From: an uncultured candidate division Zixibacteria bacterium
Lineage (GTDB): Bacteria > Zixibacteria > MSB-5A5 > UBA10806
Length of the DNA stretch: 64,000 nt
Direction of reading: 5' to 3'
NCBI GenBank assembly: GCA_963817915.1
Contig: CAWFQL010000011.1
Location: forward strand, 160,001 to 224,000
Shown: positions 3,168 through 27,030 of the stretch, in pieces
Layout: every line of letters begins with the position of its first letter
How positions within the stretch are numbered: position 1 is the stretch's first letter
Position numbers and translations under genes: made by a program
Notes under the pieces: model-generated
Seen by the model: only the letters and a program-made list of their open reading frames with translations
Database searches by the model: none
Told to the model about the DNA's origin: nothing

Positions 3168-6113
3168 ATGGGAAAAAAACCAATTAAAGAAGTATTCATG
3201 AGCTTCGCTGCCGAGGAATCCCAAATGGAGGATATCCGAAGCAGCATTCGCGATGTATTGGCCGATTCCGACCTTACAACGAAAGACGTTAATAGTGTTC
3301 TTCTGGCTCTTGAGGAAGGCTGTACCAATGTTATTCGTCATGCATATCTCTATGGCCCTGGCACCATTCGAATTAAGGTAAAGCTTTACCCTGGCAAGGT
3401 TCAATTTTCGATATTTGATCGTGGCCGGGCGTTCGACTTTGACCATTCCGATGTGCCTAATTTGGATCGCTATGTCAAAACGGGACGCAAAGGCGGTTTG
3501 GGGCTTTATCTTATTCGCAAGATGATGGATTCTGTCGATTATCATTCCCGCGATGGCGAAAATGAACTTCGAATGGAAAAAATATCCGATAAAACCAGCT
3601 CGCGATCGATTCGCATTCCAGGTTTCTCAATCCGTGTAAAATTCGCCTTATGGGCATCGCTTGTGGTATTTATGATTGTTGCGGGTGTCTTTTACTATTT
3701 TGATAATCGCGGCCGAAAAAATGCCAGAGAACGATTCTTCGATGGCTCCACGAACGCGATGGAAACATTCGTATCGGATATTGGGGATAAAATCTTATTG
3801 AGGGATTTGGATCTTAATAAATCCGCGGCGTCCTGGCTCGACGCCAACAAAAATCTGTTTTCGTTTATCGTGGTGACAGATACCGGAGGGATTATTATTG
3901 CCGATCCGGAAAGCCCTTCGCTTTTCCTTTCTGCATTTCGCGGAATTGACAGCGGAGATTATAATACTGATATCGCGGTGAAAGACAGCCTGAACAACAA
4001 AATCTTTTATTACAAAAGAGCAGCCAGGATTAATGATCAAACTGTCGGCTACGCTTATTTCGGATTAAGAGAAAGTCCTTTGAAATCCGAATTATCTCAA
4101 ACGCGTACCGGCCTGCTGTTGATTGCATTTGCGGGCCTGTTTGTAGGTTTCATGGCAGTCTATGCCTTGTCCAACTACTTTGTGAAGCCTATTCAAAAAC
4201 TGACCGAAGGCGTACTTAGATTTGGCGAGGGTAATTTAGATCAATCACTGCCGGTGGATGGTTCGGATGAATTTTCGGAGATTGCCCGGGCCTTTAATGA
4301 AATCACAGGCAAATTCAAAAAGGCGCAAGAGAATGTTGTCGAGCAGGAGCGATTGCAAAAAGAAATGCAGGTCGCTCAGGAAATTCAGCATACACTGCTT
4401 CCGCGCACTTTCCCCGATATCGAAGGTTATGATATTGCTACAGTTTACAGGGCCGCCAAAGATGTAGGCGGTGATTATTTTGATTTCGTCAGAATCGATG
4501 AAAACACGCTCGGAATTATCGTCGCCGATGTGTCCGGAAAGGGTATTCCCGGTTCATTGGTTATGACGATGATTCGAACCGCTTTGAGAATGGAAGCGAG
4601 AGGCAATTTCTCCCCCATAGATATTCTTTCGAGAGTAAATAATTTCGTTGCCGATGATGTCAAGAAGGGCATGTTCATTACCATATTTTTCATAATGCTC
4701 AATTCTGAGAGTCGGGCGATATCGTTCTCATCGGCTGGCCACAATCCCATGATTCTTTATCGCAAAGAATCGAATTCTTGCTATTTCCTGAATCCTCGCG
4801 GAATGCCGCTGGGGATAAGTCTCCCTGACGGTGTCAGTTTCGAGAAATCCTTGGAATCAGATAAAGTACAATTGAAAAAAGATGATATGTTGATTGTCTA
4901 TACCGATGGCATAACCGAAGCCATGAACAAGCTCGGTGAGCAATTCGGCAATGATAGGCTGATTCAATTCATAAGAGACAATTCAGATCTTCATCCCAAG
5001 GATTTTGCCAGCAAGCTGGATTTCGAAATCAATAAGTTTACTGGCGGCGCGCCTCAAAATGATGATATCACGTTAGTCGTTATTAAAGAAAAATTGATGC
5101 TCGACGAGGTAATATTCCAGAAACGAAGACGGCTTATAGAGATGGTAGAAAAAGAAGGCGTTCCTCTTGAAGAAGCCTGCACTCAAATGGGAGTATCGAC
5201 CTCGACCTATTATAAATATCTTCGCAGATGGCAAAAATTAGGCGATATGGGTTTATTGAATAAGAAGCTTCGCGCCGAGACCAATATAAAGCAAATTTCA
5301 ACCGAAGTCCGCAAGGAAATCTTGAAGATTGTCAGGGAAGATCCCGAGCTCGGAGGCAAAAGAATTCTTCAAAAGCTTTCGGAATTGGGAATTCAGAATA
5401 TTGATATTCGAGGGCTGTATCTTGAACTCGTAAGAATGCGCCTTAATACCAAAAAACTCAGATTAGAATATGTCGAGCGGGTTGGCGGTTCCACTCCTGA
5501 AATTCGGGCTGAACTCGAAAAAGAAATCCTCAAAGAGGTCAGCAAGAAAGAAGAATTCGATAGAGTTGAGTATATCGAAACTATTAAAAAGAATCTTGAT
5601 CAGAAAAAAGAACAGCTCGGAACGTCGGCCAGGGGGCTTGTCAGCAAGCTTCAGCAAATGGAGCCTGTTCTTGGTGATGCCAGCCTCTATGGTGAAATCG
5701 CCGCTGAACTTGGCAAACTGGGCGAGGGGGAGGATATCGCCAAATTATTTGAGAATCTAATCCTCAAAATGGCGTATAAGAATAAGGGTATCGAGAAATC
5801 ATCAGAGACAGAAATTCCTGCGCCAGCGACAATAAAGCCCATGCCCGATTTGTCCGCAGAAACACCCGTAACGGCAGGCATCGTTTCGGAAGAGGACTCA
5901 ATACCGAAAATAGCACCCAACGATAGTAATTCGGAAATAGCAATCAAGCCGGAAACCGTTGCTCCAATTCAGCCGTTACCCGAGCAGGAAAATACCCCAA
6001 TCGACGTAATTGAAAATGCCAGCAAGCCTCAAATTGATGAAGAAAAAAAGGATGAAGAATTGGATTGGGATGATTATGGTAAGAAGCTTGTTGAAAAATT
6101 TAAGAAAGAATGA
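3168..6113 (+). CDS. Fused RsbW-like Ser/Thr kinase - 2TM sensor - HAMP - SpoIIE/PP2C phosphatase - HTH protein
   Basis: N-term HATPase_c_2 (EEGCTNVIRHAY, DRG, GGLGLYLIRKMMD), two TM helices, HAMP (PIQKL..DEFSEIARAFN), PP2C (VGGDYFD, ADVSGKG, YTDGITEA, QNDDIT), HTH region and acidic tail. Confidence 0.9.
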   Translation: MGKKPIKEVFMSFAAEESQMEDIRSSIRDVLADSDLTTKDVNSVLLALEEGCTNVIRHAYLYGPGTIRIKVKLYPGKVQFSIFDRGRAFDFDHSDVPNLDRYVKTGRKGGLGLYLIRKMMDSVDYHSRDGENELRMEKISDKTSSRSIRIPGFSIRVKFALWASLVVFMIVAGVFYYFDNRGRKNARERFFDGSTNAMETFVSDIGDKILLRDLDLNKSAASWLDANKNLFSFIVVTDTGGIIIADPESPSLFLSAFRGIDSGDYNTDIAVKDSLNNKIFYYKRAARINDQTVGYAYFGLRESPLKSELSQTRTGLLLIAFAGLFVGFMAVYALSNYFVKPIQKLTEGVLRFGEGNLDQSLPVDGSDEFSEIARAFNEITGKFKKAQENVVEQERLQKEMQVAQEIQHTLLPRTFPDIEGYDIATVYRAAKDVGGDYFDFVRIDENTLGIIVADVSGKGIPGSLVMTMIRTALRMEARGNFSPIDILSRVNNFVADDVKKGMFITIFFIMLNSESRAISFSSAGHNPMILYRKESNSCYFLNPRGMPLGISLPDGVSFEKSLESDKVQLKKDDMLIVYTDGITEAMNKLGEQFGNDRLIQFIRDNSDLHPKDFASKLDFEINKFTGGAPQNDDITLVVIKEKLMLDEVIFQKRRRLIEMVEKEGVPLEEACTQMGVSTSTYYKYLRRWQKLGDMGLLNKKLRAETNIKQISTEVRKEILKIVREDPELGGKRILQKLSELGIQNIDIRGLYLELVRMRLNTKKLRLEYVERVGGSTPEIRAELEKEILKEVSKKEEFDRVEYIETIKKNLDQKKEQLGTSARGLVSKLQQMEPVLGDASLYGEIAAELGKLGEGEDIAKLFENLILKMAYKNKGIEKSSETEIPAPATIKPMPDLSAETPVTAGIVSEEDSIPKIAPNDSNSEIAIKPETVAPIQPLPEQENTPIDVIENASKPQIDEEKKDEELDWDDYGKKLVEKFKKE

Positions 6114-6856
6114 TTAAACTCGCTATCCTGACATCCAAAGGCGGGACAGGGAAGACTACTACCGCTATTAACCTTGGACATGGTCTGGCTTTATCCGGGA
6201 AGAAGGTGTTGTTAGTCGATTGCGATCCGCAGGGGTCAACATCGGCGGCTTTTGGTGTTGATGGCGAAAGGGGACTTTCGAATTTATTAACGGATGGTAA
6301 AGTCGATATTTATCAGGTTAGACCAAGGCTCTTTTTATTGCCGTCGGGCAAGAAACGTTTGGCTGACCTTGAGATGACATTAGCCACTATGGACGATAAA
6401 GAATACAGAATCAGCAACGCCCTGGGAAGGCTTTCGGGAAGCGATTGGGTTATTTTAGATTGCTCTCCGTCAATAAATATAATAAATTTAAATGCTTTAG
6501 GGTTTGCGGAACATCTCCTGATTCCAGCATCACTGGATTTTTTTTCGCTGGAGGGAGTTAAATCCACGATGGAATTGGCTAAAGAGATTACGGCAAAAGG
6601 AAAGGGAATGCTTGAGATTCTCGGAGTATTGCCGACATTTTATGATAGAAGGACTATTATTTCGAGGCTGGCTTTAGATGAACTGCGGAATAGCTACGGC
6701 CCGCTCGTATTTAATACTGAAATAAGATTGAATGCCGAGATAAAGAAATCGCAATGGTACAGGCAAACCGTTTTTGAATATGCCCCATTTTCTCATGGAG
6801 CTTATGATTATTATAAATTATCGAAAGAGGTCCAGGAAAGATTGGAGACGAAATAA
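6110..6856 (+). CDS. ParA/Soj-family ATPase (orphan, no parB)
   Basis: Deviant Walker A KGGTGKTT, LVDCDPQG, ILDCSPS, YDRRT. Confidence 0.92.
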   Translation: MIKLAILTSKGGTGKTTTAINLGHGLALSGKKVLLVDCDPQGSTSAAFGVDGERGLSNLLTDGKVDIYQVRPRLFLLPSGKKRLADLEMTLATMDDKEYRISNALGRLSGSDWVILDCSPSINIINLNALGFAEHLLIPASLDFFSLEGVKSTMELAKEITAKGKGMLEILGVLPTFYDRRTIISRLALDELRNSYGPLVFNTEIRLNAEIKKSQWYRQTVFEYAPFSHGAYDYYKLSKEVQERLETK

Positions 6857-6858
6857 AT

Positions 6859-7581
6859 ATGAGTGATATAAAAATATCTTTAGACAGCGCGGGTCCCAAG
6901 GGAGAAATTTCAGTAGTCAGGGTCGACGGGGTCATTGATACCATGACTTCCAGCGACCTCGAAAAAGTAATGAATTCTCTTCTTGAGAGGGGCAAATATT
7001 ATATCGTAATCGATCTCGGCGGGGTAGATTATATATCATCAGCGGGATGGGGTATATTTATTTCGAATATAAGAGAAATCCGCCAGCATTCTGGCGATAT
7101 CAAGCTGGCTCGTATGATTCCCAATGTGTACGAGATATTTGAGCTGTTGGAATTCGATAGCATTCTTAAAGCTTTTGACAGCGTCGAAAAGGCCAAATCG
7201 GATTTTAGCTTCATCAAAAGAAATGGCGCCGACTCCGGCGAAAGAGTGCCCGTAGAGGTTGCGGTTGCGGCGCTGGATTCCGCGGAACCTACTCAGAAGA
7301 TTAAAGAAGTGGCGAATCCGTCAACGAATCTGCAAGATGCTCCCAAACAGCTTTCGCAGTTAGAAAAGAAATCAACCGCTCCCGGGCTTCAGGAAATAGT
7401 TGTTGAGATGGTCATAAAGGACCCCTTCTTTTCGATATCAGAAATTAAAACCGAAATCGCCAGAAAATATCCGACCGCCCAATCTGGTTGGTGGCAGATT
7501 TGGAATGTTTTGCGTCAAAATCGCCTCTTAAGCAAGAAAAGCCGTTTTCGCCTGTCACGTTTTAAGAGCGGAGTTCGATAA
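6859..7581 (+). CDS. STAS anti-sigma-factor antagonist with C-terminal HTH-like domain
   Basis: VRVDGVID, VDYISSAGWG phospho-Ser motif, YEIFELLEF, linker, then a helical basic C-terminal domain. Confidence 0.88.
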   Translation: MSDIKISLDSAGPKGEISVVRVDGVIDTMTSSDLEKVMNSLLERGKYYIVIDLGGVDYISSAGWGIFISNIREIRQHSGDIKLARMIPNVYEIFELLEFDSILKAFDSVEKAKSDFSFIKRNGADSGERVPVEVAVAALDSAEPTQKIKEVANPSTNLQDAPKQLSQLEKKSTAPGLQEIVVEMVIKDPFFSISEIKTEIARKYPTAQSGWWQIWNVLRQNRLLSKKSRFRLSRFKSGVR

Positions 7582-7584
7582 TTA

Positions 7585-9429
7585 ATGATCAATAAGCCAA
7601 AGGCGTGGCCCTTTATAGTAATTTCATTGATGCTGGCCGGCATAGTAATAGCATCAGGGTTTTTCTTGAAAAACCTTAATGCAAGAATATCTATTTATCT
7701 GGCAGGAATATTGATATTGGGGTATTTGATCTATTCATATATCCGTGCCTCCTGGAAGGCCGCCATCATCGAAAAATTAATCAATACAGATTCAAATGAT
7801 AAGGATACCCTGGCCAATTCATTGCTTTCGGAGATAATCGCATCAGGTATTCAGAAAAAATCGATTCAGCAAGCGGCATCGGAAATCATAAAATCAAAAT
7901 TTGGCATCGATAAATTCGTAATTTATTTTCGCGATGACGATAAATTAATTCCTCGAATATATTCAAATGTTAATATTAAAAATCTGGGATATCTGAACAC
8001 CGATAAAATTAAAAAATACCTGGGTTCAAATATGGATTCCGGAATAATATTTAAGAATGACACCTTATTTCACGCCGCTGCAAAAAATAATGATAATGAT
8101 GAATTCGAATCCTATAATATTTTTGCTTTTTCCTGGGGCAAAGGCGGATTAATTCTGATAATTTTCGATGATACCATTGGGCATTTTACCGAAATATTAA
8201 AAAATGCCGACATGAACAAAATGCTTTGGCCGGGTTTGGATTATACATTAAGAGTCCATTTCGATCTCAAGGAAAATGCCGCCGATCTAAAGCAAAATCG
8301 AATAGAATTGGGTCGCGCGAAGAAAGAATTGATTGAATTGAATAAAGAACTCAACAAGAAGATGCTCGATGTCCAGTCGTTCGTCAAGATATCAAACGAT
8401 CTTTATTCACTATTCAATGAAGATCAGCTATTCCCTACATTGAAAAACACGATTAGCAATCAACTTGGGGCGACTAAAGTCGAAATCTTAAAGCCATCCG
8501 GCGACGGGACTTTCAAATTATCCGCCGAAGCTACGGGCAATTCCAATTCGGGATTTGAACTTATATTAGACAGTGAATCGGCTCTATTGAAATTATTGCA
8601 AAAAAGCGCCAAACCACTTTTAATGCCGCTGGTAGGCTCAGGATTAAGCCCCAAAGAACCATTTCTCGACGCGGCAGCCCAGGCCGGTTTTCAGATAGCC
8701 TCGCCAATAAAGGTCAGCGGCCGAATTGAATGCATTATTTTAGTGGGCGAAAAGAAGGATAAAGGACAATATCTAAACCAGGATATAGATTCATTTTATA
8801 GTATCAGTAATATTGCCTCGCTGGCATTGGAAAATATAAAACAGTATTCAACAATAGAGAAACTTTCATATACTGACAGCATGACGGGTATTTATAACTA
8901 TCGCTATTTCTATAAACGTCTCAGCGAGGAAATTCTGAGAGCTCAAAGATACAACCGTGAAATCGCATTGGTAATCATGGATATCGATAATTTCAAAACT
9001 TTTAATGATAATTTTGGCCATCAGGCCGGAGATATGGTATTAAAACAATTGTCGGAGCTGATAACTCGGACGATAAGGTCAATTGATGTTGTCAGCCGCT
9101 ATGGAGGCGAGGAATTCTGTATTATCATGCCGGATACGGGGACTGCCAATTGCAGTATTTTTATCGAACGTTTAAGAGCCGAAATTGCGGGTTTTAAATT
9201 TGAATCGGAGGCGTCCCATATTAATTCAATAACAGTTTCAGTCGGGGGAGCGGTCTACCCATATCACGGGACTAATCCCGACCGATTGATATATTGTTCT
9301 GATATGGCATTATTGAAAGCAAAATCGTCGGGCAGGAACCGCGCGTTGATGTATAGCGTAAATAGTGATGATAAAGGGGATTTAATGTCTGGGAGGTCAG
9401 ATGTCGCTAAAAGGGAATATACAGAATAG
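7585..9429 (+). CDS. Membrane-anchored GAF-GGDEF diguanylate cyclase
   Basis: Two N-terminal TM helices, coiled coil, GAF, TDSMTG, DIDNFK, RSID I-site, SRYGGEEF. Confidence 0.92.
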   Translation: MINKPKAWPFIVISLMLAGIVIASGFFLKNLNARISIYLAGILILGYLIYSYIRASWKAAIIEKLINTDSNDKDTLANSLLSEIIASGIQKKSIQQAASEIIKSKFGIDKFVIYFRDDDKLIPRIYSNVNIKNLGYLNTDKIKKYLGSNMDSGIIFKNDTLFHAAAKNNDNDEFESYNIFAFSWGKGGLILIIFDDTIGHFTEILKNADMNKMLWPGLDYTLRVHFDLKENAADLKQNRIELGRAKKELIELNKELNKKMLDVQSFVKISNDLYSLFNEDQLFPTLKNTISNQLGATKVEILKPSGDGTFKLSAEATGNSNSGFELILDSESALLKLLQKSAKPLLMPLVGSGLSPKEPFLDAAAQAGFQIASPIKVSGRIECIILVGEKKDKGQYLNQDIDSFYSISNIASLALENIKQYSTIEKLSYTDSMTGIYNYRYFYKRLSEEILRAQRYNREIALVIMDIDNFKTFNDNFGHQAGDMVLKQLSELITRTIRSIDVVSRYGGEEFCIIMPDTGTANCSIFIERLRAEIAGFKFESEASHINSITVSVGGAVYPYHGTNPDRLIYCSDMALLKAKSSGRNRALMYSVNSDDKGDLMSGRSDVAKREYTE

Positions 9430-10429
9430 TCTTATGGTTAGCCCAAAAATTAATTGTACTTCTCGAATTGTGCTAATATTTGCTATTTTGTTCATTTCGG
9501 CTAACGCGCAGGATAAGGATACTTATATTATTGGTCCGACGGACAGATTAGCCATATCATTCTGGCAGCAGCCCGATTTAAATACAACAGTTCGAGTCAG
9601 TGATAATGGAAATATAACCTTGCCGGTAATAGGGGAGATCAGGGCTGCGGGACTGACCACCGCGGAATTATCAAAAAAAATTGTAGAGCAAATGGTGTTT
9701 TATAATAGTCCTGTATCACAGGCGACAATAGCAGTCACTGAGTATAATTCCCGGACAGTGGTTGTCACCGGGCAGGTATTGACCCCCGGAAGCCATAGCT
9801 ATGAAAAAATACCTGATATCTGGAAAGTCATTCTCGATTCTGGAGGGCCCACATCTCAGGCGAATCTTTCCGGTGTCACGATTGTACGGAAGGATGGCGA
9901 AAAGACTGATGTAATTGATGTCGATTTGTATAAAATAATCAAAGATGGTGATTTATCGAAGGCTCCTCCACTCAAACCGGGTGATTTGGTCAATATTCCT
10001 GTTTCACCATATGGGTCGGCGGTTGAGCTTGCCGGAACGCCTCAAGCTGAACGGAAAAATATCTATTTTGTTTTTGGAAGGGTTACAACTCCCGGGGCCA
10101 GGGACCTTCAAGAGGGTATCGATATAATGGATGCCATCACGCTGGCCGGTGGACCTCTTGCGGATGCTGATTTGAGAAATATCAGAGTAATTATGAAAGA
10201 CGCCGGGCCGTCGAATATAGTCAAAATTGATCTCGAAAATTATATTGATAAGGGAACTCCTTCTCGTTTTTTGCTTCGTGCTGAAGACACCGTGGTTATT
10301 CCACTGCGTAGGGACGGCACTTTCACAAATATTACGAATAGGCTTGCTACGGTTGTACCAATCATTACCGCCATAGGGACATTGATATTATTATACTATA
10401 ATATTCAAGAGATAAATAGGAGACGTTAG
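9401..10429 (+). CDS. Polysaccharide export protein, Wza/SLBB family
   Basis: YIIGPTDRL, GNITLPVIGEIRAAGLT Poly_export motif and two SLBB repeats; start may be 9434. Confidence 0.88.
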   Translation: MSLKGNIQNSLMVSPKINCTSRIVLIFAILFISANAQDKDTYIIGPTDRLAISFWQQPDLNTTVRVSDNGNITLPVIGEIRAAGLTTAELSKKIVEQMVFYNSPVSQATIAVTEYNSRTVVVTGQVLTPGSHSYEKIPDIWKVILDSGGPTSQANLSGVTIVRKDGEKTDVIDVDLYKIIKDGDLSKAPPLKPGDLVNIPVSPYGSAVELAGTPQAERKNIYFVFGRVTTPGARDLQEGIDIMDAITLAGGPLADADLRNIRVIMKDAGPSNIVKIDLENYIDKGTPSRFLLRAEDTVVIPLRRDGTFTNITNRLATVVPIITAIGTLILLYYNIQEINRRR

Positions 10430-10432
10430 AGC

Positions 10433-12016
10433 TTGAGTAACGATAAAAAGCAAATAAATCTTAAAGAATACTGGGGCATTCTTACGCGTCGCAAGACGCT
10501 CCTAATATTGCCTATTTTGATAATACCATTAGTCTCAATTGCGGTAAGCTATTTTTTAAAGCCTCAATATGTTTCATCTGTTACCATTTTGACCGGAGAA
10601 ACCAATATTTTGCCCCCTTCAGTCGAGAGAGAATTGCAAAGCGGACAAAGATTCGATTGGACTGAGCCGCAGGAACGGCTGATTTCGATTACGAGTAAGA
10701 TCACATCAACTAAGTATTTGAGAAGATTGATTTCAGTTCTTGATATTAAAGCTACACCTGAGATAATGAAGGTCGTGACTGAAACCAAGACCGCATTCCC
10801 GGATATTTCTGAAGCTGATCTTGCCGAAAATATTATGGCTGATCAGCTTAGAAATAATATAACTGTCAATTTACGCTCGAATAACGTTTTTGAAATTCTT
10901 TTTGCGTCCGCCGACCCAATTATGGCGCAGAAGCTTGCCAAATCACTCGCCGACATTTTTATTGAAGAGAATTTAGCACAGGATATGGCGGGGATTAGGT
11001 CCAATATCAGCTTTTCGGAAGAGCAATTAGCAGTTTATCACGAGAAGCTTAAAGATGCCGAGGACAAGTTGAAGGACTATCGTGAAGGCATTCTGGCGAC
11101 ATCTGTCGGGGAAGATACTACTGGCGCAAGCCTCCGGATGATAATTTCCGCTGCAGAAGCGCTTGATTTGGAAATACGAAAAGAAGAGGAATCTCAGGAT
11201 AGTGTGCGATTATATCTGGTAAACAATAAGGTCGATTTGGCAAATCTGGTGTTGCCGGTAAACCTGCAAAACGAAAAATCCAGGCTCATTAATCTCTTAT
11301 CGACTCTAACTGAATTGTTGACTAGAAATAGCTGGCGAGACCCCAAAGTAGTCAATTTAAACGAAGAAGCCAAAAATCTGCATGATCTCATTACACGGGA
11401 AATCGGCATTTTTACTGAAAGTCAATATGCAGATAAATCTTCTCAATTTAAAGATAAAATATCTGAATATCTAACTGGTTCGGTATCGCTCGAATATAGC
11501 AGGGCAAAGAAAGAGGCTCTCGATAAAAGCGTAGGCAAGATCAAATCGCGGATAACCAAAAATCCTGATACCGAAGTAACTATTCAGAGGCTGCAAAGCG
11601 AGGTCAATACTTATCGTGATTTGTACAATACATTCGTGATGCATTCGCAGTACGGAGCGATAGACCAATCCGCCAAGAAGGTCGAAGCTGAAGCCAAATT
11701 TATGATAATAAAGCCAGCCTCGCTCCCATTAACGCCCGAATCACCCAACAGACAGAAACTGGCATTAATGGGAATAGTTCTGGCGTTAGCAATTGGAGTG
11801 GGAGCAATCATTATACTGGAATTGCTCGATAACTCATTCAAGAAGATCGATGATGCTGAAAATTATTTGAATATTGCCGTAATAGGGACTATTCCAAAAA
11901 TCCTTCTTCCCTATTATTCGCCGATTAAAAAAAGAATTCCAATCCTAATCGGAACCGGCATCAGTTTTATGCTTATTATATTAATACTTTATTTAAATTT
12001 AAGGAAAAGCGGGTAA
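10433..12016 (+). CDS. Polysaccharide chain-length determinant (GumC/Wzc N-terminal)
   Basis: INLKEYWGILTRRK plus TM, long coiled coil, PASLPLTPESPNR plus TM, ELLDNSF. Confidence 0.88.
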   Translation: MSNDKKQINLKEYWGILTRRKTLLILPILIIPLVSIAVSYFLKPQYVSSVTILTGETNILPPSVERELQSGQRFDWTEPQERLISITSKITSTKYLRRLISVLDIKATPEIMKVVTETKTAFPDISEADLAENIMADQLRNNITVNLRSNNVFEILFASADPIMAQKLAKSLADIFIEENLAQDMAGIRSNISFSEEQLAVYHEKLKDAEDKLKDYREGILATSVGEDTTGASLRMIISAAEALDLEIRKEEESQDSVRLYLVNNKVDLANLVLPVNLQNEKSRLINLLSTLTELLTRNSWRDPKVVNLNEEAKNLHDLITREIGIFTESQYADKSSQFKDKISEYLTGSVSLEYSRAKKEALDKSVGKIKSRITKNPDTEVTIQRLQSEVNTYRDLYNTFVMHSQYGAIDQSAKKVEAEAKFMIIKPASLPLTPESPNRQKLALMGIVLALAIGVGAIIILELLDNSFKKIDDAENYLNIAVIGTIPKILLPYYSPIKKRIPILIGTGISFMLIILILYLNLRKSG

Positions 12017-12020
12017 ATAA

Positions 12021-13139
12021 GTGGTTTTCAACGGTTATACAGACAAATTCAAAAGACTGGGAAGGGAGTATCTTTTTCAGACTTCTATAGATAATAGTCG
12101 CAAACAAGTAGTAAGTTCGTTGTTTCATGCGGGGCAGCTGCTGAATAGTATCGCTACTCCATTTCAGGATGCTTCGCAGGGAGAGAAGTTGTTTGAAAAG
12201 GCGCTAAGTTTTCATAAGCAAAATCTTGGGGATCTGGATTCATTGCTTGGCTTGGCCGAACGGATGCGAAGTTTAGAAAAGCCGGATATAATCGAAAAGC
12301 TCGGGAAATCATTATGTGCAAGACAGCTTTATGATGAAGGTTTGGAACTGCTGCTTCTGGCTTCTCAGAAATACCCCGAAAGTCCCGGGCTGCATCATGT
12401 TCTCGGCAAATTATACCTGGCCAAGGGACAGGTCAATGATGCCGAAACTGAATTTGGACGCGCCGTTGATTTGGCGCCCGATTTCCCGGACTATAGAAAC
12501 GCCCTTGGAATCGCCTATTTAAAATCAAACAAGGCTGTGGCCGCAATCTCCGAATTCAAAAAAGCCGTGACGCTTAATATCTATTTTGATAAGGCTTATT
12601 TTAATCTGGGTTTGGGGTATATAGCCAATGGCATCATTAGGGAAGATTTCAATCTGGCCAAAAATCTCGTCCAAAATAGCATGGATGCTCTCCAAAAAGC
12701 CGCGTTGTTTAATCCGGCTTATAATACGGATAAATATACCGAGGGCCTTGAATTTCTTAATGAAGGCGAATATGAAAAGGCCTATTCAACGTTGTCGAAA
12801 GTTGCCGAGGAACATACATCTCGTTCCGCGGAAGAGCATTTGGTCGAATTATATCTTCGATATATTCATAACGAGACCGGAATGTCCGAAGAGGGGATTA
12901 ACAACTTTATTGAACGGATTAAAGACTTATTGAAATTAAATCCAGGATATGCCGATTTGCATAATGAATTGGGCATGGCATATACTATCCTGTGTAAATT
13001 TATGAATGATAAGGCAATTTATCATTTTCAGGAGGCGCTCAAAATTAATCCCAATTTTACAAAGGCTGTAAAAAATCTAAAATTATCGAAAAATGACTTG
13101 AAGGGATTCGAAATTCTTTTGGAAGCGATTTTAAAATGA
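12021..13139 (+). CDS. TPR-repeat protein
   Basis: Repeats such as PDFPDYRNALG, PGYADLHNELG, ALKINPNF. Confidence 0.85.
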   Translation: MVFNGYTDKFKRLGREYLFQTSIDNSRKQVVSSLFHAGQLLNSIATPFQDASQGEKLFEKALSFHKQNLGDLDSLLGLAERMRSLEKPDIIEKLGKSLCARQLYDEGLELLLLASQKYPESPGLHHVLGKLYLAKGQVNDAETEFGRAVDLAPDFPDYRNALGIAYLKSNKAVAAISEFKKAVTLNIYFDKAYFNLGLGYIANGIIREDFNLAKNLVQNSMDALQKAALFNPAYNTDKYTEGLEFLNEGEYEKAYSTLSKVAEEHTSRSAEEHLVELYLRYIHNETGMSEEGINNFIERIKDLLKLNPGYADLHNELGMAYTILCKFMNDKAIYHFQEALKINPNFTKAVKNLKLSKNDLKGFEILLEAILK

Positions 13140-13864
13140 AAAATAACGGCAAATTTCCGCCATTAACGGCTGTCTTCGATAAGGAATCATCGGTTGCGAC
13201 TGAATTCAGAAGGCTTTATTCCAATTTAAAATCCCGCAAGGGAACTGAAAATTTAAAAACGATAATGATTACTTCCGCGATAATTGGCGAGGGCAAATCC
13301 CTTACAAGTTCCCTGCTATCAATGACAATGGCGGATCTGACCAAAGCCAAAATTGGATTGGTTGATTTCGATTTAAGACGTCCCAAATTGAATATTTATT
13401 TTAATTTGCCTATAGAAAATGGCGTCTCCGATGTCCTTGGGGGCAAAATCGGCATAAAGGAAATTTGCCGCAAGACTACTATACCAAATCTGACAGTGCT
13501 TTGCGCGGGGAAACCAAATAATAATCCAAGCGAAATTATCGATAGAGCCGATATACCTGCATTTTTTCAGGAGCTAAAATTCTATTTCGATTACATTGTG
13601 ATCGATTCGCCCCCTGTAATTCCCGTTTCGGATCCATTGCTGATCGCTGATCAGGTTGATGGCGTGTTATTAGTTGTAAGGGCCGGAACAACCCAGCGCG
13701 AGGTAGTCGGCAGGGCCGTAAATCTTCTGAAGAATGCCAAAGTCAATCTTCTTGGCGCCGTATTGAATGACTGCGAAAGCGTTTTGCCCTATTATTACAA
13801 AGAAAGCTACTACGGATATCGTTATTATCACAAAGATAATAAAAAATCCCAAAAGACCGCATAA
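13136..13864 (+). CDS. CpsD/CapB-family bacterial tyrosine kinase
   Basis: EFRRLYSNL, ITSAIIGEGKS, VDFDLRRP, VIDSPP, C-terminal Tyr cluster YYYKESYYGYRYY. Confidence 0.93.
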   Translation: MKNNGKFPPLTAVFDKESSVATEFRRLYSNLKSRKGTENLKTIMITSAIIGEGKSLTSSLLSMTMADLTKAKIGLVDFDLRRPKLNIYFNLPIENGVSDVLGGKIGIKEICRKTTIPNLTVLCAGKPNNNPSEIIDRADIPAFFQELKFYFDYIVIDSPPVIPVSDPLLIADQVDGVLLVVRAGTTQREVVGRAVNLLKNAKVNLLGAVLNDCESVLPYYYKESYYGYRYYHKDNKKSQKTA

Positions 13865-23774: not shown

Positions 23775-25583
23775 ATGAAGCGAAAATACGATTCCTATGA
23801 AATTGAAATAGTAATATCACTGAGCCTCCTGGTTGTCATTCTGATTTCCCTGAGTTTTCTTTCGGGATACGCCTTCGAAAATGCGCGACGCTGGCAGCTA
23901 ATTCAATTTGATGAAAATCTTAATCTCGCAGTTGAAAATGCCAAATTGGTCCTCGAAAATGATATCGATAATTGGCGTCATTCCGATATCGCCACACTCA
24001 AACGGCTACGAGATCTTTCCGCCCAAACTGGAATTGCCGACATTTCAGTCACGGATACTCTCGGCAATGTAATTTCCGCAATTTCGAGTCACCCGGAAAT
24101 CAAATCGAAAAATTCGTATTTCGAAGTTCGCCGACCTATTGTCAATCGAGACGGCAAAATAATGGCCTACGTGATATTTTCTTCGATCAATACGGCCGGA
24201 ATCAAATTTCAGCTTCTCTCTCGCTGGGATGCGGTCTTCAGGATCGCGGGCCTTCTTTCGGCGCTTGTGGTCGGCGCGTTCTTTTTGAAATCGATTCTTT
24301 CGCCATACAGAAGAATCAAGCGGGAGGCGATCGATTACAATCTCGATTGGGGCGATAATGAAAAAAATAAGGGTACTGATTATATCATCGCGACTTTTAA
24401 AAATATTGTCGCCGAACTCGAAGAGAAAAAAGGCCGTCTTGAACAAATGTATGCCACATCTGAAAAAAGAGCGGATTCCCTCGCCAGATATAATGAAGAT
24501 ATCCTGGGCTCCATCACATCGGGAGTCATGATTTGTGACTCAAGCGGCATAATCACCAGACTAAATAGATCGGCTCAGACAATACTGAAATATTTCGAGA
24601 AAGACTGTCTGGGCAGGCATTATCGAGATATTTTCGGCTTAGAACATAAATTAACCATGCTTTTCGACGACGCTCTGCAGCGAAAAGTCGTGCATTCCCG
24701 AATTGAATTCGAGATCAAGCGCCCTGATAATGACAAGCTCTGGATTGGCTGTTCATCGTCTATGATCAACGATGAAAAGGGGGATGGCATGGGGGCCGCC
24801 ATCTTAATGATCGATTTGACTGAAATTCGAAAATTGCAGGAAATTTCTTCATTCAATGAAAAGATGGCTTCTCTGGGACAAACTGCGGCCGGATTGGCTC
24901 ATGAAATCAGAAATTCATTTGCCACCATCGTAGGATTTGCGACTCTCCTCAAGAAGAGTATTGTCGATGATCCTCAAATCGCGAAGCATGTCGATTCTAT
25001 CCGAAATGAATCCATGGCTGCTGAATCATTGCTTTCGAGATTCCTTGATTTTGCCAAGCCTCTTGAGCCCAGAATCGAACGAATACATATCAAAAGCCTG
25101 ATTGATTCCGCGCTTCAATGTCTCCATCATCCGGGTCTTTCCAATATCAAAGTCACCCAAATTATATCGCATGATCTATCCGATTATATGGGTGATTCCG
25201 CGTTATTGCGTCAAGCCTTGATAAATCTTCTGCTAAATTCCTGCGATGCAATCAGCGGCAATGGCGAAATTCGGATTGAAGCATATGTTGCCGATAAAGC
25301 GCACGCAATAAATAAAACCGAATTGGTAATAGCCATCCTCGATAACGGGGCAGGTATTGATTCGAAAGTAATTGGCAAAATATTCGATCCCTTCTTTTCA
25401 GATAAAAAGAATGGTACAGGATTAGGACTGGCTCTGGTCAAAAAAATTGTGGTCTTGCATAACGGCCTTATTGAAGTTCATAGCAAAAAGGGAAGAGGGA
25501 CAAAATTCACCGTTAGGTTGCCTATAATTAGAGATATTGCGATTACCGACAAGAAGCAAATTATGTCATTTCGGGAGGCTTAG
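23775..25583 (+). CDS. Membrane PAS sensor histidine kinase (PilS/NtrB-like, orphan)
   Basis: 2 TM, PAS, LAHEIRN H-box, NLLLNS, DNGAG, FDPFF, GTGLGL. Confidence 0.9.
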   Translation: MKRKYDSYEIEIVISLSLLVVILISLSFLSGYAFENARRWQLIQFDENLNLAVENAKLVLENDIDNWRHSDIATLKRLRDLSAQTGIADISVTDTLGNVISAISSHPEIKSKNSYFEVRRPIVNRDGKIMAYVIFSSINTAGIKFQLLSRWDAVFRIAGLLSALVVGAFFLKSILSPYRRIKREAIDYNLDWGDNEKNKGTDYIIATFKNIVAELEEKKGRLEQMYATSEKRADSLARYNEDILGSITSGVMICDSSGIITRLNRSAQTILKYFEKDCLGRHYRDIFGLEHKLTMLFDDALQRKVVHSRIEFEIKRPDNDKLWIGCSSSMINDEKGDGMGAAILMIDLTEIRKLQEISSFNEKMASLGQTAAGLAHEIRNSFATIVGFATLLKKSIVDDPQIAKHVDSIRNESMAAESLLSRFLDFAKPLEPRIERIHIKSLIDSALQCLHHPGLSNIKVTQIISHDLSDYMGDSALLRQALINLLLNSCDAISGNGEIRIEAYVADKAHAINKTELVIAILDNGAGIDSKVIGKIFDPFFSDKKNGTGLGLALVKKIVVLHNGLIEVHSKKGRGTKFTVRLPIIRDIAITDKKQIMSFREA

Positions 25584-25659
25584 ATCGAGCGGGATTCGAG
25601 TAGTTTTGGTATTATTAATTTGCCGGTATCATAGTATGATTCACCATGAAATTACGACA

Positions 25660-25686
25660 TAAAGGCTCAGGATAATAAGCCGATAG
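25660..25686 (+). promoter_or_regulatory. sigma28 (FliA) promoter of the HDOD gene
   Basis: TAAA-N15-GCCGATAG. Confidence 0.75.
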
Positions 25687-25719
25687 TTAGTAATGAATGG
25701 GTAGCGAAAGGGGAATGCC

Positions 25720-27030
25720 ATGACTTTGAAAAATAAAATTCTTACGAAACTAAGTTCATTGGAAGTTGTTGCTTCGCCTGCTCCCGTTCTTGCGGAAATC
25801 CTTACATTATTAGATCAGGAATCCTCAAATGCCAAAAATCTTACAGAAATAATTTTAAAAGATCCTAACCTGACTGCGAGAATTCTTAAAGCCGCGAATT
25901 CATCTTTTTATGGTGTTCGTCAAAAAGTAAACACTATCAATCAGGCGGTTTTGGTCCTCGGGCTTGATGCGGTAAAATGCCTGGTACTTTCCATCTCTAT
26001 TTACAATCAGTTATCCACCAGAGGAAATGTTAACGAACACGAATTCTCGGGGCTCTGGAGGCATTTCCTGGAATCCGCGGCGGCCGCGAAGAATATTGCT
26101 ATAAATATAAAATACCCAAGTATCGAAGAAGCGTATATAGCCGGTTTGCTGCATGATTTTGGAAGACTCTTCCTCTTGCGATATTTTTCTCCGGAGGTAT
26201 TTCAGACCAATAGAATGGTTGCCGAGGGCGCCAGGCTGGTCGAGGCGGAAGAGAAGATTTTTGGATTGGATCATCAGGAAATAGGTCACTATATCGCTAC
26301 CAAGTGGAATCTTCCGGACAAGCTTGTTGCTGCTATAGGCGCGCATCATCCCAAGAATGAGCAGGAAGTATCTAATCTATCGCTTCTGACAAAAATCGCC
26401 GCCCTGGCCGAACACCTTTGTCCTAATAGCCAGGAATTACCGGAGACTCCGGAGGGAGTGAGCCATAAGGCGCTTATTCTGGATACCTGCTGTACCCAGA
26501 TGGGAATCGGCATGGATGTTATTCAGAAAATCTATGGAGTCCTGCCTCAAGAAGTATTGCATCACGCGGAAAGCATGGAAATCAATATCGGCGATGCCAT
26601 TGAATATTTGACTCGCACCAATATGGAGCTTTTCAATCTTTATGTCGAATTGGCCTCGACCTTCAAACAAAGGCAGGAATTGTCAAAAAGGATACTTGCC
26701 GATGAAAGAGTGGAAGGCACACTCGAATCGCTTCATATCGCTCTGGCAACATTGTCGCACTATATCAATAATTCCACTATGAGTATCAGCGGTCAATGCG
26801 AAGTGGTCAATTTGCTTCATACAAAGGGTGATAAGAACGGGGTATACGAGAGAATTCCCGGACTCACCGATTCCATACGAAAATCGATAAAGAAAATCTC
26901 GATCGTTTTACAGGAGCTTTCGAATATAACTACTCTTGAAAGAATAAACTATTTCAAGCATTCCAAGGCGATCGATATCGAAAAATCGCTCAAAGATCGT
27001 CTCGAAAGAGAATCCGCTCCAGTCGCATAG
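25720..27030 (+). CDS. HDOD-domain protein with C-terminal HisKA-like helix pair (no ATPase domain)
   Basis: DPNLTARILKAANS, AGLLHDFG, DHQEIG, WNLP; C-term ATLSHYINN. Confidence 0.85.
   Translation: MTLKNKILTKLSSLEVVASPAPVLAEILTLLDQESSNAKNLTEIILKDPNLTARILKAANSSFYGVRQKVNTINQAVLVLGLDAVKCLVLSISIYNQLSTRGNVNEHEFSGLWRHFLESAAAAKNIAINIKYPSIEEAYIAGLLHDFGRLFLLRYFSPEVFQTNRMVAEGARLVEAEEKIFGLDHQEIGHYIATKWNLPDKLVAAIGAHHPKNEQEVSNLSLLTKIAALAEHLCPNSQELPETPEGVSHKALILDTCCTQMGIGMDVIQKIYGVLPQEVLHHAESMEINIGDAIEYLTRTNMELFNLYVELASTFKQRQELSKRILADERVEGTLESLHIALATLSHYINNSTMSISGQCEVVNLLHTKGDKNGVYERIPGLTDSIRKSIKKISIVLQELSNITTLERINYFKHSKAIDIEKSLKDRLERESAPVA

Follow-up and report, generated by a model that had tools for sequence, protein, structure and literature searches.

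What are helix-turn-helix (HTH) modules of transposase type doing on two signalling proteins of the same operon? This question is raised by a stretch of 64,000 nucleotides (nt) from an uncultured candidate division Zixibacteria bacterium (contig CAWFQL010000011.1, positions 160,001 to 224,000; hereafter, the window, in whose numbering all coordinates are given). Near its start, the window carries an operon whose core genes, all on the + strand and translationally close, encode in this order: (i) a sensor kinase/phosphatase; (ii) a ParA-family ATPase; (iii) a STAS protein with an HTH tail (STAS-HTH); and (iv) a diguanylate cyclase (3168-9429). Domains were annotated by means of Pfam and NCBIfam profile scans of the translated open reading frames (ORFs). 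The kinase bears a whole HTH pair (HTH1 and HTH2), and the STAS protein, after a disordered linker, bears a single HTH2 followed by a basic helix. Judging from profile comparisons, both tails are HTH modules like those with which IS481, IS630 and Tc1 transposases begin, without the catalytic core or the ends of an insertion sequence (IS).

A first-pass annotation of this DNA had stated that both proteins end in IS481-type HTH modules. Both of them do carry the module, but the kinase continues for some 210 residues beyond its pair. The peptides quoted for both proteins are present as described, but the start then given for the kinase module, 5104, is one base out of frame; in frame, the pair covers 5109-5483 (kinase residues 648-772), C-terminal of the PP2C domain. 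On residues 651-693, HTH_23 scores 30.9 bits, above its cut-off of 24.6, and HTH_32 (residues 680-741), HTH_28 and HTH_29 match the module below their cut-offs. The NCBIfam model of IS481 transposases (NF033577) aligns its positions 1-109 of 284 with residues 652-765 at an E-value (E) of 2.9e-16, scoring 59.8 bits against a cut-off of 224, and the match ends at model position 109; the IS630, IS3 and ISNCY models score lower on the same stretch. Residues S677, T680, Y682, Y684 and R687 of HTH1 are invariant in 31 orthologs, and HTH1 and HTH2 each have a net charge of +5. A phmmer search of the kinase tail against the Protein Data Bank (PDB) returned at best unrelated hypothetical proteins (E 0.017). 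The earlier remark that neither a DDE core nor terminal repeats are present was borne out: no DDE/rve family was found in the Pfam (E<=1) or NCBIfam scans of the cassette proteins, and between 2500 and 10000 there are only 23 weak inverted pairs (14-23 nt, 73-94% complementary), none of which brackets either gene.

The STAS protein matches PF01740 (62.9 bits, 2.7e-17) and TIGR00377 (58.5 bits, above the cut-off of 53.45). Its residues S60 and S61 are invariant in 32 orthologs and would lie at the canonical STAS phospho-site position. In the AlphaFold2 model of the whole protein, the predicted local distance difference test score (pLDDT) drops under 50 over residues 121-174 and is around 90 in the tail; modelled alone, the tail reaches a pLDDT of 87.6, with helices at its positions 8-18, 24-34, 42-51 and 57-68. 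It has a net charge of +8, and its residues D188, P189, F190, G210, W211, W212, L218, R229, R231 and R234 are invariant in the same 32 orthologs, whose linker varies freely. The STAS tails of Calditrichota have no double Trp. An early idea, namely that Trp residues, presumed exposed, mark a surface not used for DNA, was weakened by these Calditrichota tails.

The first-pass annotation had aligned the STAS tail by eye to the second half of the kinase module, and profile comparison agrees with that alignment. While BLASTP between the STAS tail and the kinase tail gave no alignment at E<=100, and hhalign with shallow profiles (32 versus 31 close orthologs) gave a probability of 4% (P 0.01) in the same register, deep profiles (60 STAS tails versus 42 kinase HTH2 segments) aligned over 59 columns in the by-eye register with a probability of 96.5% and an E of 8.8e-10; the controls, a reversed template and an HTH1 template, gave P values of 0.018 and 0.019, respectively. 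In a set of 2952 ORFs, the hidden Markov model (HMM) of the Zixibacteria kinase HTH2 matches the STAS tails of four Calditrichota-type loci (E 1.2e-7 to 6.6e-5), and the STAS-tail HMM matches one kinase HTH2 (E 4e-4). Among the 25,242 six-frame ORFs of the bacterium's own genome, the best non-self match of the tail HMM, a weak one (E 0.47), is precisely kinase residues 712-771, and the HTH1 and HTH2 HMMs match nothing else at E<=10. By these profile criteria, the STAS tail is a homolog of the kinase HTH2, their similarity lying far beyond chance.

The window's own STAS tail matches no Pfam family at E<=1. Some of 60 orthologous tails do find matches at this threshold: HTH_Tnp_Tc3_2 in 30/60 (best E 3.5e-5), HTH_21 in 4/60 and HTH_32 in 3/60, the best scores being 24.4 bits for HTH_Tnp_Tc3_2 (cut-off 31.5) and 23.6 for HTH_32 (cut-off 33.7). 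Against PDB sequences, the best match of the tail profile is a 62-residue fragment of the Sleeping Beauty transposase (5unk, E 0.13). Foldseek returned nothing for the STAS tail in the PDB at E<=0.001, and a search of the ESM Atlas gave no usable match. With VIA-align, the best structural neighbour is the C-terminal domain of NarL (Z 5.8, root-mean-square deviation (rmsd) 2.3, 52 aligned residues), among 41 chains with Z>=5; a second pass added LmrR (Z 6.1) and, tied at Z 5.8, the second subdomains of the Pax5 and Pax6 paired domains (rmsd 4.7, 52-54 aligned). The paired domain is related to the HTH domains of IS481, IS630 and Tc1 transposases. In any case, the structural neighbours of the tail are generic HTH and winged-HTH DNA-binding domains, and no specific family is singled out. 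The similarity to transposase-type HTH families that the first-pass annotation had expected of both tails was found on the kinase, with HTH_23 above its cut-off and HTH_28, HTH_29 and HTH_32 below theirs, and for the STAS tail at the profile level, through its homology to the kinase HTH2; the Foldseek search with the STAS tail gave nothing at E<=0.001.

Leaving the STAS family aside, the tail profile (the sole profile searched in a library of this size) finds its nearest relatives in HTH arrays of Patescibacteria glycosyltransferases, not in transposases. The profile, built from 60 tails, was searched against 1.84 billion representative proteins and gave 372 matches at E<=1e-3, of which 108 at E<=1e-10. 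The matches include STAS proteins and short ORFs; when 27 longer proteins among the others were scanned, 15 turned out to be GT2 glycosyltransferases with two consecutive HTH_23/HTH_28 plus HTH_32 pairs at their N-terminus; those with a named source come from Patescibacteria or Microgenomates, and no DDE/rve family appears in any of the 27 at E<=1e-4 (for one of them, among the best 25 of 31 families). On the HTH_32-bearing Patescibacteria segments, the tail profile reaches an E of 1e-12 to 1e-8. In these GT2 proteins, the kinase HTH2 HMM and the STAS-tail HMM match the same segments, the kinase HTH1 HMM matching just upstream of each; this confirms the STAS tail as the second HTH of the pair. 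The HTH pair also recurs, as these matches show, on polysaccharide enzymes. The top match of the tail profile (P0187, 3274 amino acids (aa), E 4.8e-132) is built up from 50 short weak stretches in a protein with no Pfam family, which may be a repeat protein of HTH-like units.

A resident IS481-like transposase with rve domains is encoded on the same contig, outside the window (contig positions 297461-298267, L001), and it has no significant sequence similarity to the kinase tail. The claim that a transposase unit was recruited into the two proteins is upheld as regards the nature of the modules (of transposase type, without a core), but the direction of the transfer is unsupported, no likeness to any resident transposase being found and the nearest relatives outside the STAS family being the glycosyltransferase arrays.

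Whether these modules are retained was assessed in loci from species genomes, where 598 pattern matches gave 507 confirmed relatives, the best 80 of these 507 loci being used, and in a phylum sample of 201 genomes (180 of them high-quality) with a threshold of E<=1e-20 for the STAS gene. STAS orthologs, of about 240 aa, amount to 1320 proteins at E<=0.001 (out of 2184 candidates); 120 of them, among the matches listed, share 50-67% identity with the window's protein (which itself scores 100%), mostly over 98-99% of its length. The STAS gene is present in 177 of the 201 genomes (162 of the 180 high-quality ones), and three families of the sample have none (0/8, 0/4 and 0/10 genomes). The tail is encoded, with the same motifs, in 80/80 loci. 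As for the kinase, 66 relatives including the window's own were found at E<=0.001 (8000 candidates scored). Complete kinases number 55, i.e. 54 retrieved plus the one of the window, and show three architectures: (i) an HTH pair together with a ParA gene (29/55); (ii) an HTH pair without ParA (6/55, namely five Calditrichota-type loci and L024); and (iii) neither (20/55).

In a tree of the kinase core (a quick LG+G4 tree with a midpoint root, in which the branches of L051, L024, L075 and L084 are flagged as long), a single clade, with a support of 100 and a long stem, takes in 19 of the 20 rows without HTH pair and lies within the HTH-bearing ones, and two changes are needed for the HTH state and four for the ParA state. 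This pattern would fit a loss of the HTH pair and of ParA in one lineage, on a root taken from the midpoint only. Nei-Gojobori dN/dS values, obtained only from pairs with unsaturated dS (most pairs are saturated), are 0.045-0.21 for the STAS tail, 0-0.27 for HTH1, 0.024-0.085 for HTH2 and 0.07-0.54 for the linker. Judging by these ratios and by their distribution, both modules are ancient and under purifying selection; conservation in orthologs and dN/dS, which the first-pass annotation had named as checks, thus speak for modules kept and selected across two phyla. The two tails do not depend on each other: an HTH pair is absent from 20 of the 55 complete kinases, and the STAS proteins encoded with these 20 nonetheless retain the tail. 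The features of the cassette, together with the sets of loci and proteins compared with it, are collected in Table 1.

Table 1. Cassette features (coordinates of the window) and comparison sets.
Feature	Coordinates	Strand	Details
Two TPR proteins, 435 and 152 aa	1381..3112	+	Pfam TPR; upstream of the kinase gene
Sensor kinase/phosphatase, 981 aa	3168..6113	+	HATPase_c_2, membrane/sensor region, HAMP, SpoIIE/PP2C, HTH pair, spacer, acidic stretch, predicted ParA-docking end
HTH1, residues 648-700	5109..5267	+	HTH_23, HTH_28; IS481 model
HTH2, residues 701-772; homolog of the STAS tail by profile	5268..5483	+	HTH_32 below cut-off; hhalign to STAS tails
Spacer 'Cmid', residues 773-869, conserved	5484..5774	+	HMM from 31 orthologs; no Pfam family
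Two conserved C-terminal kinase motifs, residues 937-954 'PIDV..AS' and 964-978 'LDWDDYGKKLVEKFK'	5976..6101	+	Predicted ParA docking
ParA/MinD-family ATPase, 248 aa	6110..6856	+	AAA_31 6.4e-35, 121.1 bits; start overlaps kinase stop
STAS-HTH protein, 240 aa	6859..7581	+	STAS domain residues 15-112, disordered linker 117-175, HTH tail 176-240
STAS tail: three-helix HTH2-type module plus basic fourth helix	7384..7578	+	Motifs DPF, GWW, RFRxxR
Diguanylate cyclase, 614 aa, N-terminal membrane region	7585..9429	+	GGDEF 1.7e-45, 155.1 bits; TIGR00254 173.6 bits
Wza-type polysaccharide export and Wzz-type chain-length proteins	9401..12016	+	Poly_export 3e-21, SLBB, Wzz 8e-7
A-run split loci, 47			Within range L085-L135; tail out of frame
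A-run in-frame loci, 22			L038, L046, L047, L049, L052, L055-L058, L060, L061, L063-L067, L071, L072, L078, L079, L082, L083
GT2 proteins with two HTH1+HTH2 pairs			P0276, P0292, P0293, P0296, P0297, P0301, P0303, P0304, P0308, P0316-P0318, P0320, P0321, P0331

The cassette as a whole (TPR, TPR, kinase/phosphatase, ParA where present, STAS-HTH, diguanylate cyclase, Wza, Wzz) is conserved in Zixibacteria and Calditrichota. Relatives of the 435-aa TPR protein lie upstream in 28/29, 20/20 and 6/6 complete loci of the architectures with HTH pair and ParA, with neither and with HTH pair alone, respectively, and those of the 152-aa TPR protein in 29/29, 20/20 and 6/6; a Wza relative lies downstream in 51 of the retrieved loci. 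In this way, the synteny of the flanking TPR genes, and of Wza where the retrieved DNA extends far enough, is common to all three architectures. In the kinase, HATPase_c_2 (PF13581, residues 13-138) scores 95.1 bits against a cut-off of 27.4 (E 4.2e-27), HAMP covers residues 334-378 (E 3e-12) and SpoIIE/PP2C (PF07228, residues 445-640) scores 165.3 bits against a cut-off of 25 (E 2.1e-48). Residues E49, N54 and G109-G112 of the kinase domain and the acidic residues D436, D454, D580, D632 and D633 of the PP2C domain are invariant in 31 orthologs. Among paralogous kinase/phosphatases (P0177-P0179 and P0180-P0184), the HTH pair is followed by three STAS domains (1432-1575 aa) or by TPR repeats (1090-1189 aa), and some of them show an sCache_3_2 sensor domain.

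The presumed output enzyme of the switch is the diguanylate cyclase, whose translation contains a GGEEF motif with an RxxD five residues upstream of it; a GGDEF gene lies downstream of the STAS gene in most of the 80 loci, and directly after it in the window. In the NCBIfam scans, the cassette proteins of the window show weak similarity to SiaA and SiaD, below the cut-offs. Downstream of the cyclase, an exopolysaccharide cluster (Wza/Wzz/sugar transferase) starts with the Wza and Wzz genes. Within this cluster, adjoining Wzz, there is a second ParA/MinD-like P-loop protein (13136-13864), possibly a tyrosine autokinase partner, and further downstream a PAS histidine kinase and an HDOD/HD protein (23775-27030) add more signalling capacity near the polysaccharide genes. 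No sigma factor gene is found in the cassette, the neighbours being ParA, GGDEF and Wza genes.

The ParA protein has a deviant Walker A motif (K10-G-G-T-G-K-T-T) that is invariant in 26 orthologs, and all subfamily models score below their cut-offs: 84 versus 180 bits for ParA_partition (9.9e-24), 72.5 versus 157.85 for BcsQ (3.5e-20) and 43.7 versus 201.75 for MinD. The part of the kinase that extends beyond the HTH pair (residues 773-981) has a net charge of -17 and includes an acidic stretch. The Cmid HMM matches only kinases of ParA loci, of which L036, L042, L050 and L068 have no match. At the very end of the protein, the C-terminal motif (acidic/aromatic, then Y..KKL..K(F/Y)KK) is, by eye, clear in 34 of the 36 kinases of ParA loci, degenerate in L035 and L068, and seen neither in the six HTH-bearing kinases without ParA nor in the HTH-less kinases. 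As the co-occurrence signal was found only for that pair, a complex was modelled for ParA and the kinase C-terminus, with two copies of ParA, ATP and Mg, kinase residues 915-981 and custom alignments. The resulting score was 0.72 (0.72, 0.71 and 0.74 in the individual runs), and the best of three controls scored 0.00; this level is attained by 116 of 157 solved complexes and by 2 of 215 mismatched pairs, counts which hold only roughly here owing to the custom alignments and small molecules. Contact agreement among runs was at least 84%, and the pLDDT of the partner at least 59. The confident contacts involve residues 937-954 and 964-978 of the kinase and residues 25-34, 60-75, 90-111 and 222-235 of ParA. 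The model, in short, supports a predicted docking of the kinase C-terminal end on the ParA dimer. The kinase extension is, therefore, a composite of (i) a basic HTH pair; (ii) a conserved spacer; (iii) an acidic stretch; and (iv) the predicted ParA-docking end.

What could such an assembly do? By analogy with characterised partner switches, the membrane sensor would use its fused kinase and phosphatase domains to control whether the STAS protein is phosphorylated, and the STAS protein would be the downstream element acting on the adjacent cyclase, as in SypE/SypA and SiaABC-SiaD. The basic HTH tail of the STAS protein would provide a second contact, to nucleic acid, be it DNA near the exopolysaccharide genes or the nucleoid. 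The HTH pair of the kinase, together with the C-terminal ParA-docking peptide, would act as a ParB-type adaptor coupling the sensor to ParA and, through or beside ParA, to DNA, and the two tails would function independently of each other. We infer that both modules bind DNA, and their tethering to DNA, which the first-pass annotation had suggested, is plausible (net charges of +5, +5 and +8). For the contact of the STAS tail with nucleic acid and for the ParB-like role of the kinase HTH pair and docking end, the balance of probability is about level.

Several observations weigh against this DNA-directed reading. No Pfam match of a STAS tail reaches its gathering cut-off, and for the tail of the window there is none at E<=1; the structural matches are weak and generic, their best Z of 5.8-6.1 being in a range commonly seen. 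A single HTH on a monomeric STAS protein would bind DNA weakly unless dimerised. The third helices (LYEELVRMRL in the kinase HTH2, GWWKIW in the Zixibacteria STAS tail) are rich in acidic and aromatic residues, which fits a protein-contact surface equally well, and such a composition is unusual for a recognition helix. Beyond the family, the closest relatives belong to membrane glycosyltransferases, for which a role involving DNA is not obvious. As regards ParA, the complex score expresses model confidence and may lean on known complexes of ParA with partner peptides; moreover, this ATPase could be of the BcsQ type, organising secretion machines rather than riding DNA (PMC11407121).

The competing explanation that ranks first, possible if rather unlikely, holds that the HTH folds have been reused as protein-docking modules and their DNA binding has been lost. 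The STAS tail would then dock on the N-terminal region of the cyclase, on a TPR protein or on the kinase core, and the kinase pair would scaffold its own C-terminal region together with ParA. Such a role would suit the aromatic and acidic residues of the third helices, the presence of the same pair, twice, on membrane GT2 enzymes of Patescibacteria and the fact that the tails of paralogous kinases precede varied protein-interaction cargo (TPR repeats or three STAS domains). It also agrees with the protein contacts that STAS proteins use in all the switches described (PMC8457831; PMC10120452). It sits badly, however, with the strong positive net charge of all three modules, and with the helix of HTH1 rich in S, T, Y, K and R, typical of transposase HTHs and invariant in 31 orthologs.

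A further element of the DNA-directed reading comes from a run of A residues at the junction of the STAS domain with the linker that leads to its tail, which occurs in relatives and not in the window. About 50 of the 150 phylum matches listed cover, by eye, the STAS domain only (ORFs of 128-148 aa), and 54 such loci were retrieved. Among these, 47 have an out-of-frame tail with an A-run, three are in-frame fusions (L091, L092 and L095) and two end at a contig edge (L136 and L137); in L138 (genome G144) STAS domain and tail are in different frames without an A-run, and in L134 (genome G122) there is no tail within 521 nt downstream of the STAS domain. In L091 and L092, from one family, STAS domain and tail share a frame and give proteins 214-217 aa long whose tail is divergent, reading GFWGLVRLLW where others have GWWxIW; the full-length profile had missed this form in the genome search. 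The run in the 47 split loci is A10 in 38, A9 in eight and A11 in one, and the STAS frame ends 6-28 nt past it. The tail frame, which is open across the run in 47/47 (although it opens just 2 nt before it in three), is at -1 relative to the STAS frame in 46/47 and at +1 in the remaining one. Directly after the run, it encodes a conserved peptide of the LTRLTVVD type, and from about 10 nt past the run its conservation follows a three-base period, with low-information columns at 63, 66 and so on up to 81. No conserved start codon follows the A-run in the 47 split loci, and RNAalifold found 0 conserved pairs in the 47 downstream sequences. Transcriptional slippage on long runs needs no stimulatory structure (PMC5009743).

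Another 22 genes, in frame, have exactly A10 at the junction, read as xxA AAA AAA AAA G; they comprise the 19 loci of the HTH-less kinase clade, without exception, as well as L055, L058 and L083. Their Lys codons within the run are AAA in 66/66 cases, versus 144 AAA and 100 AAG elsewhere in the same genes, and a gain of one or two A, or a loss of one, would bring in a stop 1-11 codons further on. In the remaining 59 in-frame genes, that of the window included, no A-run exceeds 8, and none of the 81 in-frame genes is an in-frame A11 version. The A-run of L090 is crossed without an indel by contigs of two public DNA runs, possibly from the same sample as the genome.

In its simplest reading, this pattern makes the A-run a candidate programmed slippage site giving STAS-only and STAS-HTH products, the default product differing between the two arrangements. 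It is doubtful that these loci are ordinary split genes, with a start of its own for the small HTH protein, or homopolymer assembly errors. Gene callers do report stand-alone ORFs of 56-115 aa, no conserved RNA structure was detected and homopolymers are error-prone in some sequencing chemistries; besides, the one cluster of such ORFs that was looked up includes a 242-aa STAS protein. Against these two alternatives speak a tail frame that is open across every run, with codon periodicity so close behind it, no conserved start codon and the same -1 relation in all loci except one, the pure A preserved even in frame, the missing in-frame A11 and the contigs of the two further runs, even if these may stem from the same sample. 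Under the DNA-directed reading, the dose of STAS tails would matter, and the clade without HTH pair and ParA would join STAS domain and tail via its conserved run of A9-11; standard decoding plus slippage (transcriptional or -1 ribosomal) would yield both STAS-only and STAS-HTH products.

Taken as a whole, with its switch on the cyclase, DNA-directed tails, ParB-like adaptor and tail dosage, this reading has in our judgement an even chance of being right. A bolder version appears doubtful in turn: a sigma-independent switch in which the STAS protein would be a phosphorylation-gated DNA binder, with two isoforms through A10 slippage in a large clade, and in which the sensor would be coupled to the nucleoid through its HTH pair and ParA. 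If that were true, the cassette would join second-messenger signalling, transcriptional output and spatial positioning for exopolysaccharide production.

The homotypic pairing that the first-pass annotation had put forward as an option is now disfavoured as the reason why the tails exist, although it may occur where both are present. That the STAS tail and the kinase HTH2 pair like with like, holding the substrate on the enzyme, might be suggested by the homology of the modules, by their encoding in one operon and by fused proteins in which kinase, PP2C, HTH and STAS domains share one chain; but the HTH pair is absent from 20/55 complete kinases, whose STAS tails keep DPF, GWW and RFR, with the tail itself kept in 80/80 loci, and the STAS domain already docks on the kinase domain at a canonical site (PMC10120452), all of which makes the idea improbable. 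More improbable still is a Trp/Arg-rich STAS tail that serves as receptor of a small ligand, e.g. cyclic di-GMP (c-di-GMP) from the neighbouring cyclase, in a feedback loop. The case for it is circumstantial: some aromatic and arginine residues of the tail are invariant, c-di-GMP sites commonly involve stacking of aromatic residues with arginines, and a GGDEF gene adjoins the STAS gene in most of the 80 loci; but the double Trp is not retained in the Calditrichota tails, and no known c-di-GMP-binding family was matched in the Pfam scans. Lastly, the view that the modules are remnants of a recently inserted IS, or look like transposase HTHs by chance, which the real IS481-like rve transposase on the contig might bring to mind, can be dismissed, as it is refuted by the conservation of the modules across two phyla under purifying selection; besides, that transposase is dissimilar to the kinase tail, and the genome has no further HTH1 or HTH2 match at E<=10.

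Besides sigma factors, the known targets of partner switches have come to include cyclases and polysaccharide enzymes (PMC8457831; PMC10120452; preprint 10.64898/2026.04.08.717354), among the latter a STAS-controlled polysaccharide enzyme in Anabaena (preprint 10.64898/2026.04.08.717354). In Vibrio fischeri, SypE has an N-terminal RsbW-type serine kinase, a central sensory part and a C-terminal PP2C domain, and controls the STAS protein SypA and thereby a polysaccharide biofilm (PMC10120452). The cassette of the window resembles this system in its order of HATPase_c_2, sensor/HAMP and SpoIIE domains, in the STAS gene downstream and in the polysaccharide cluster at the locus. But while the centre of SypE is a receiver domain, that of the window's kinase is a transmembrane sensor with HAMP; the HTH pair and predicted ParA-docking tail of the kinase, the HTH tail of the STAS protein and the ParA and GGDEF genes in the operon also set it apart from SypE-SypA. 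In SiaABCD, HsbR-HsbA-HsbD and BgrSTUWV-BgrR, a STAS or STAS-like protein binds a GGDEF enzyme or not depending on whether it is itself phosphorylated (PMC8457831). As in systems of the SiaABCD and HsbA-HsbD type, a GGDEF enzyme (with GGEEF) is encoded next to the STAS protein of the window, its gene directly following the STAS gene. Unlike in the Sia, Hsb and Bgr systems, kinase and phosphatase are fused and membrane-bound, and HTH modules, a ParA partner and a slippery run (the last in relatives) are additions with respect to what the available account of those systems describes.

The kinase tail is similar to the N-terminal bipartite unit of IS481, IS630 and Tc1 transposases in being made of two consecutive three-helix HTHs, and STAS tails weakly match HTH_Tnp_Tc3_2, HTH_32 and HTH_21. 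Unlike in transposases, there is no DDE/rve core and there are no inverted repeats; the unit is C-terminal of signalling domains, and the STAS protein has only the second HTH. Adaptors of ParA/MinD ATPases (ParB, McdB, ParP, FlrA-FlhG) use a short terminal contact peptide, and the partners often have a DNA-binding domain (PMC11407121). In the same way, a deviant-Walker-A ATPase is encoded here beside a kinase whose predicted docking peptide co-occurs with ParA. Nevertheless, the contact peptide is C-terminal, unlike that of many ParA partners, which according to PMC11407121 lies in an N-terminal region, and the partner is a membrane sensor enzyme. As to the A-run, recoding at such runs is known from the A_AAA_AAG frameshift of Escherichia coli dnaX, the transcriptional slippage of Thermus dnaX and the orfA-orfB fusion of IS elements (PMC5009743). 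The run of the relatives also joins two protein parts, the split type needing slippage for the long form and the in-frame type for the short one. It differs from the dnaX and IS cases in that the gene is a cellular signalling gene, the joined part is itself a transposase-type HTH and no stimulatory structure is predicted, and it is a candidate only.

The cassette thus belongs with the SypE/SypA and Sia/Hsb partner switches, to whose equipment it adds transposase-type HTH modules on both switch proteins, a predicted docked ParA and, in one clade, an A-run. In the full-text literature searched, whose coverage leaves out most subscription papers, nothing was found on a DNA-binding-type module, a docked ParA or a recoding site in any STAS protein or in its kinase/phosphatase, and a review of STAS-only proteins makes no mention of DNA binding, helix-turn-helix or fusions.

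For the biology of these bacteria, the finding may matter in several ways. The predicted contact between ParA and the kinase peptide names specific residues to mutate. With the A-run, a cellular gene of regulatory function becomes a new candidate for programmed slippage, and its in-frame and -1 arrangements mirror the two dnaX solutions. The same module on the glycosyltransferases of Patescibacteria points to a wider role in polysaccharide control. If the modules do not bind DNA, they would show clearly how the DNA-binding fold of a transposase can become an adaptor for signalling; and if they do bind it, they would let a membrane sensor reach the chromosome directly, by a new route, in two phyla of which little is known.

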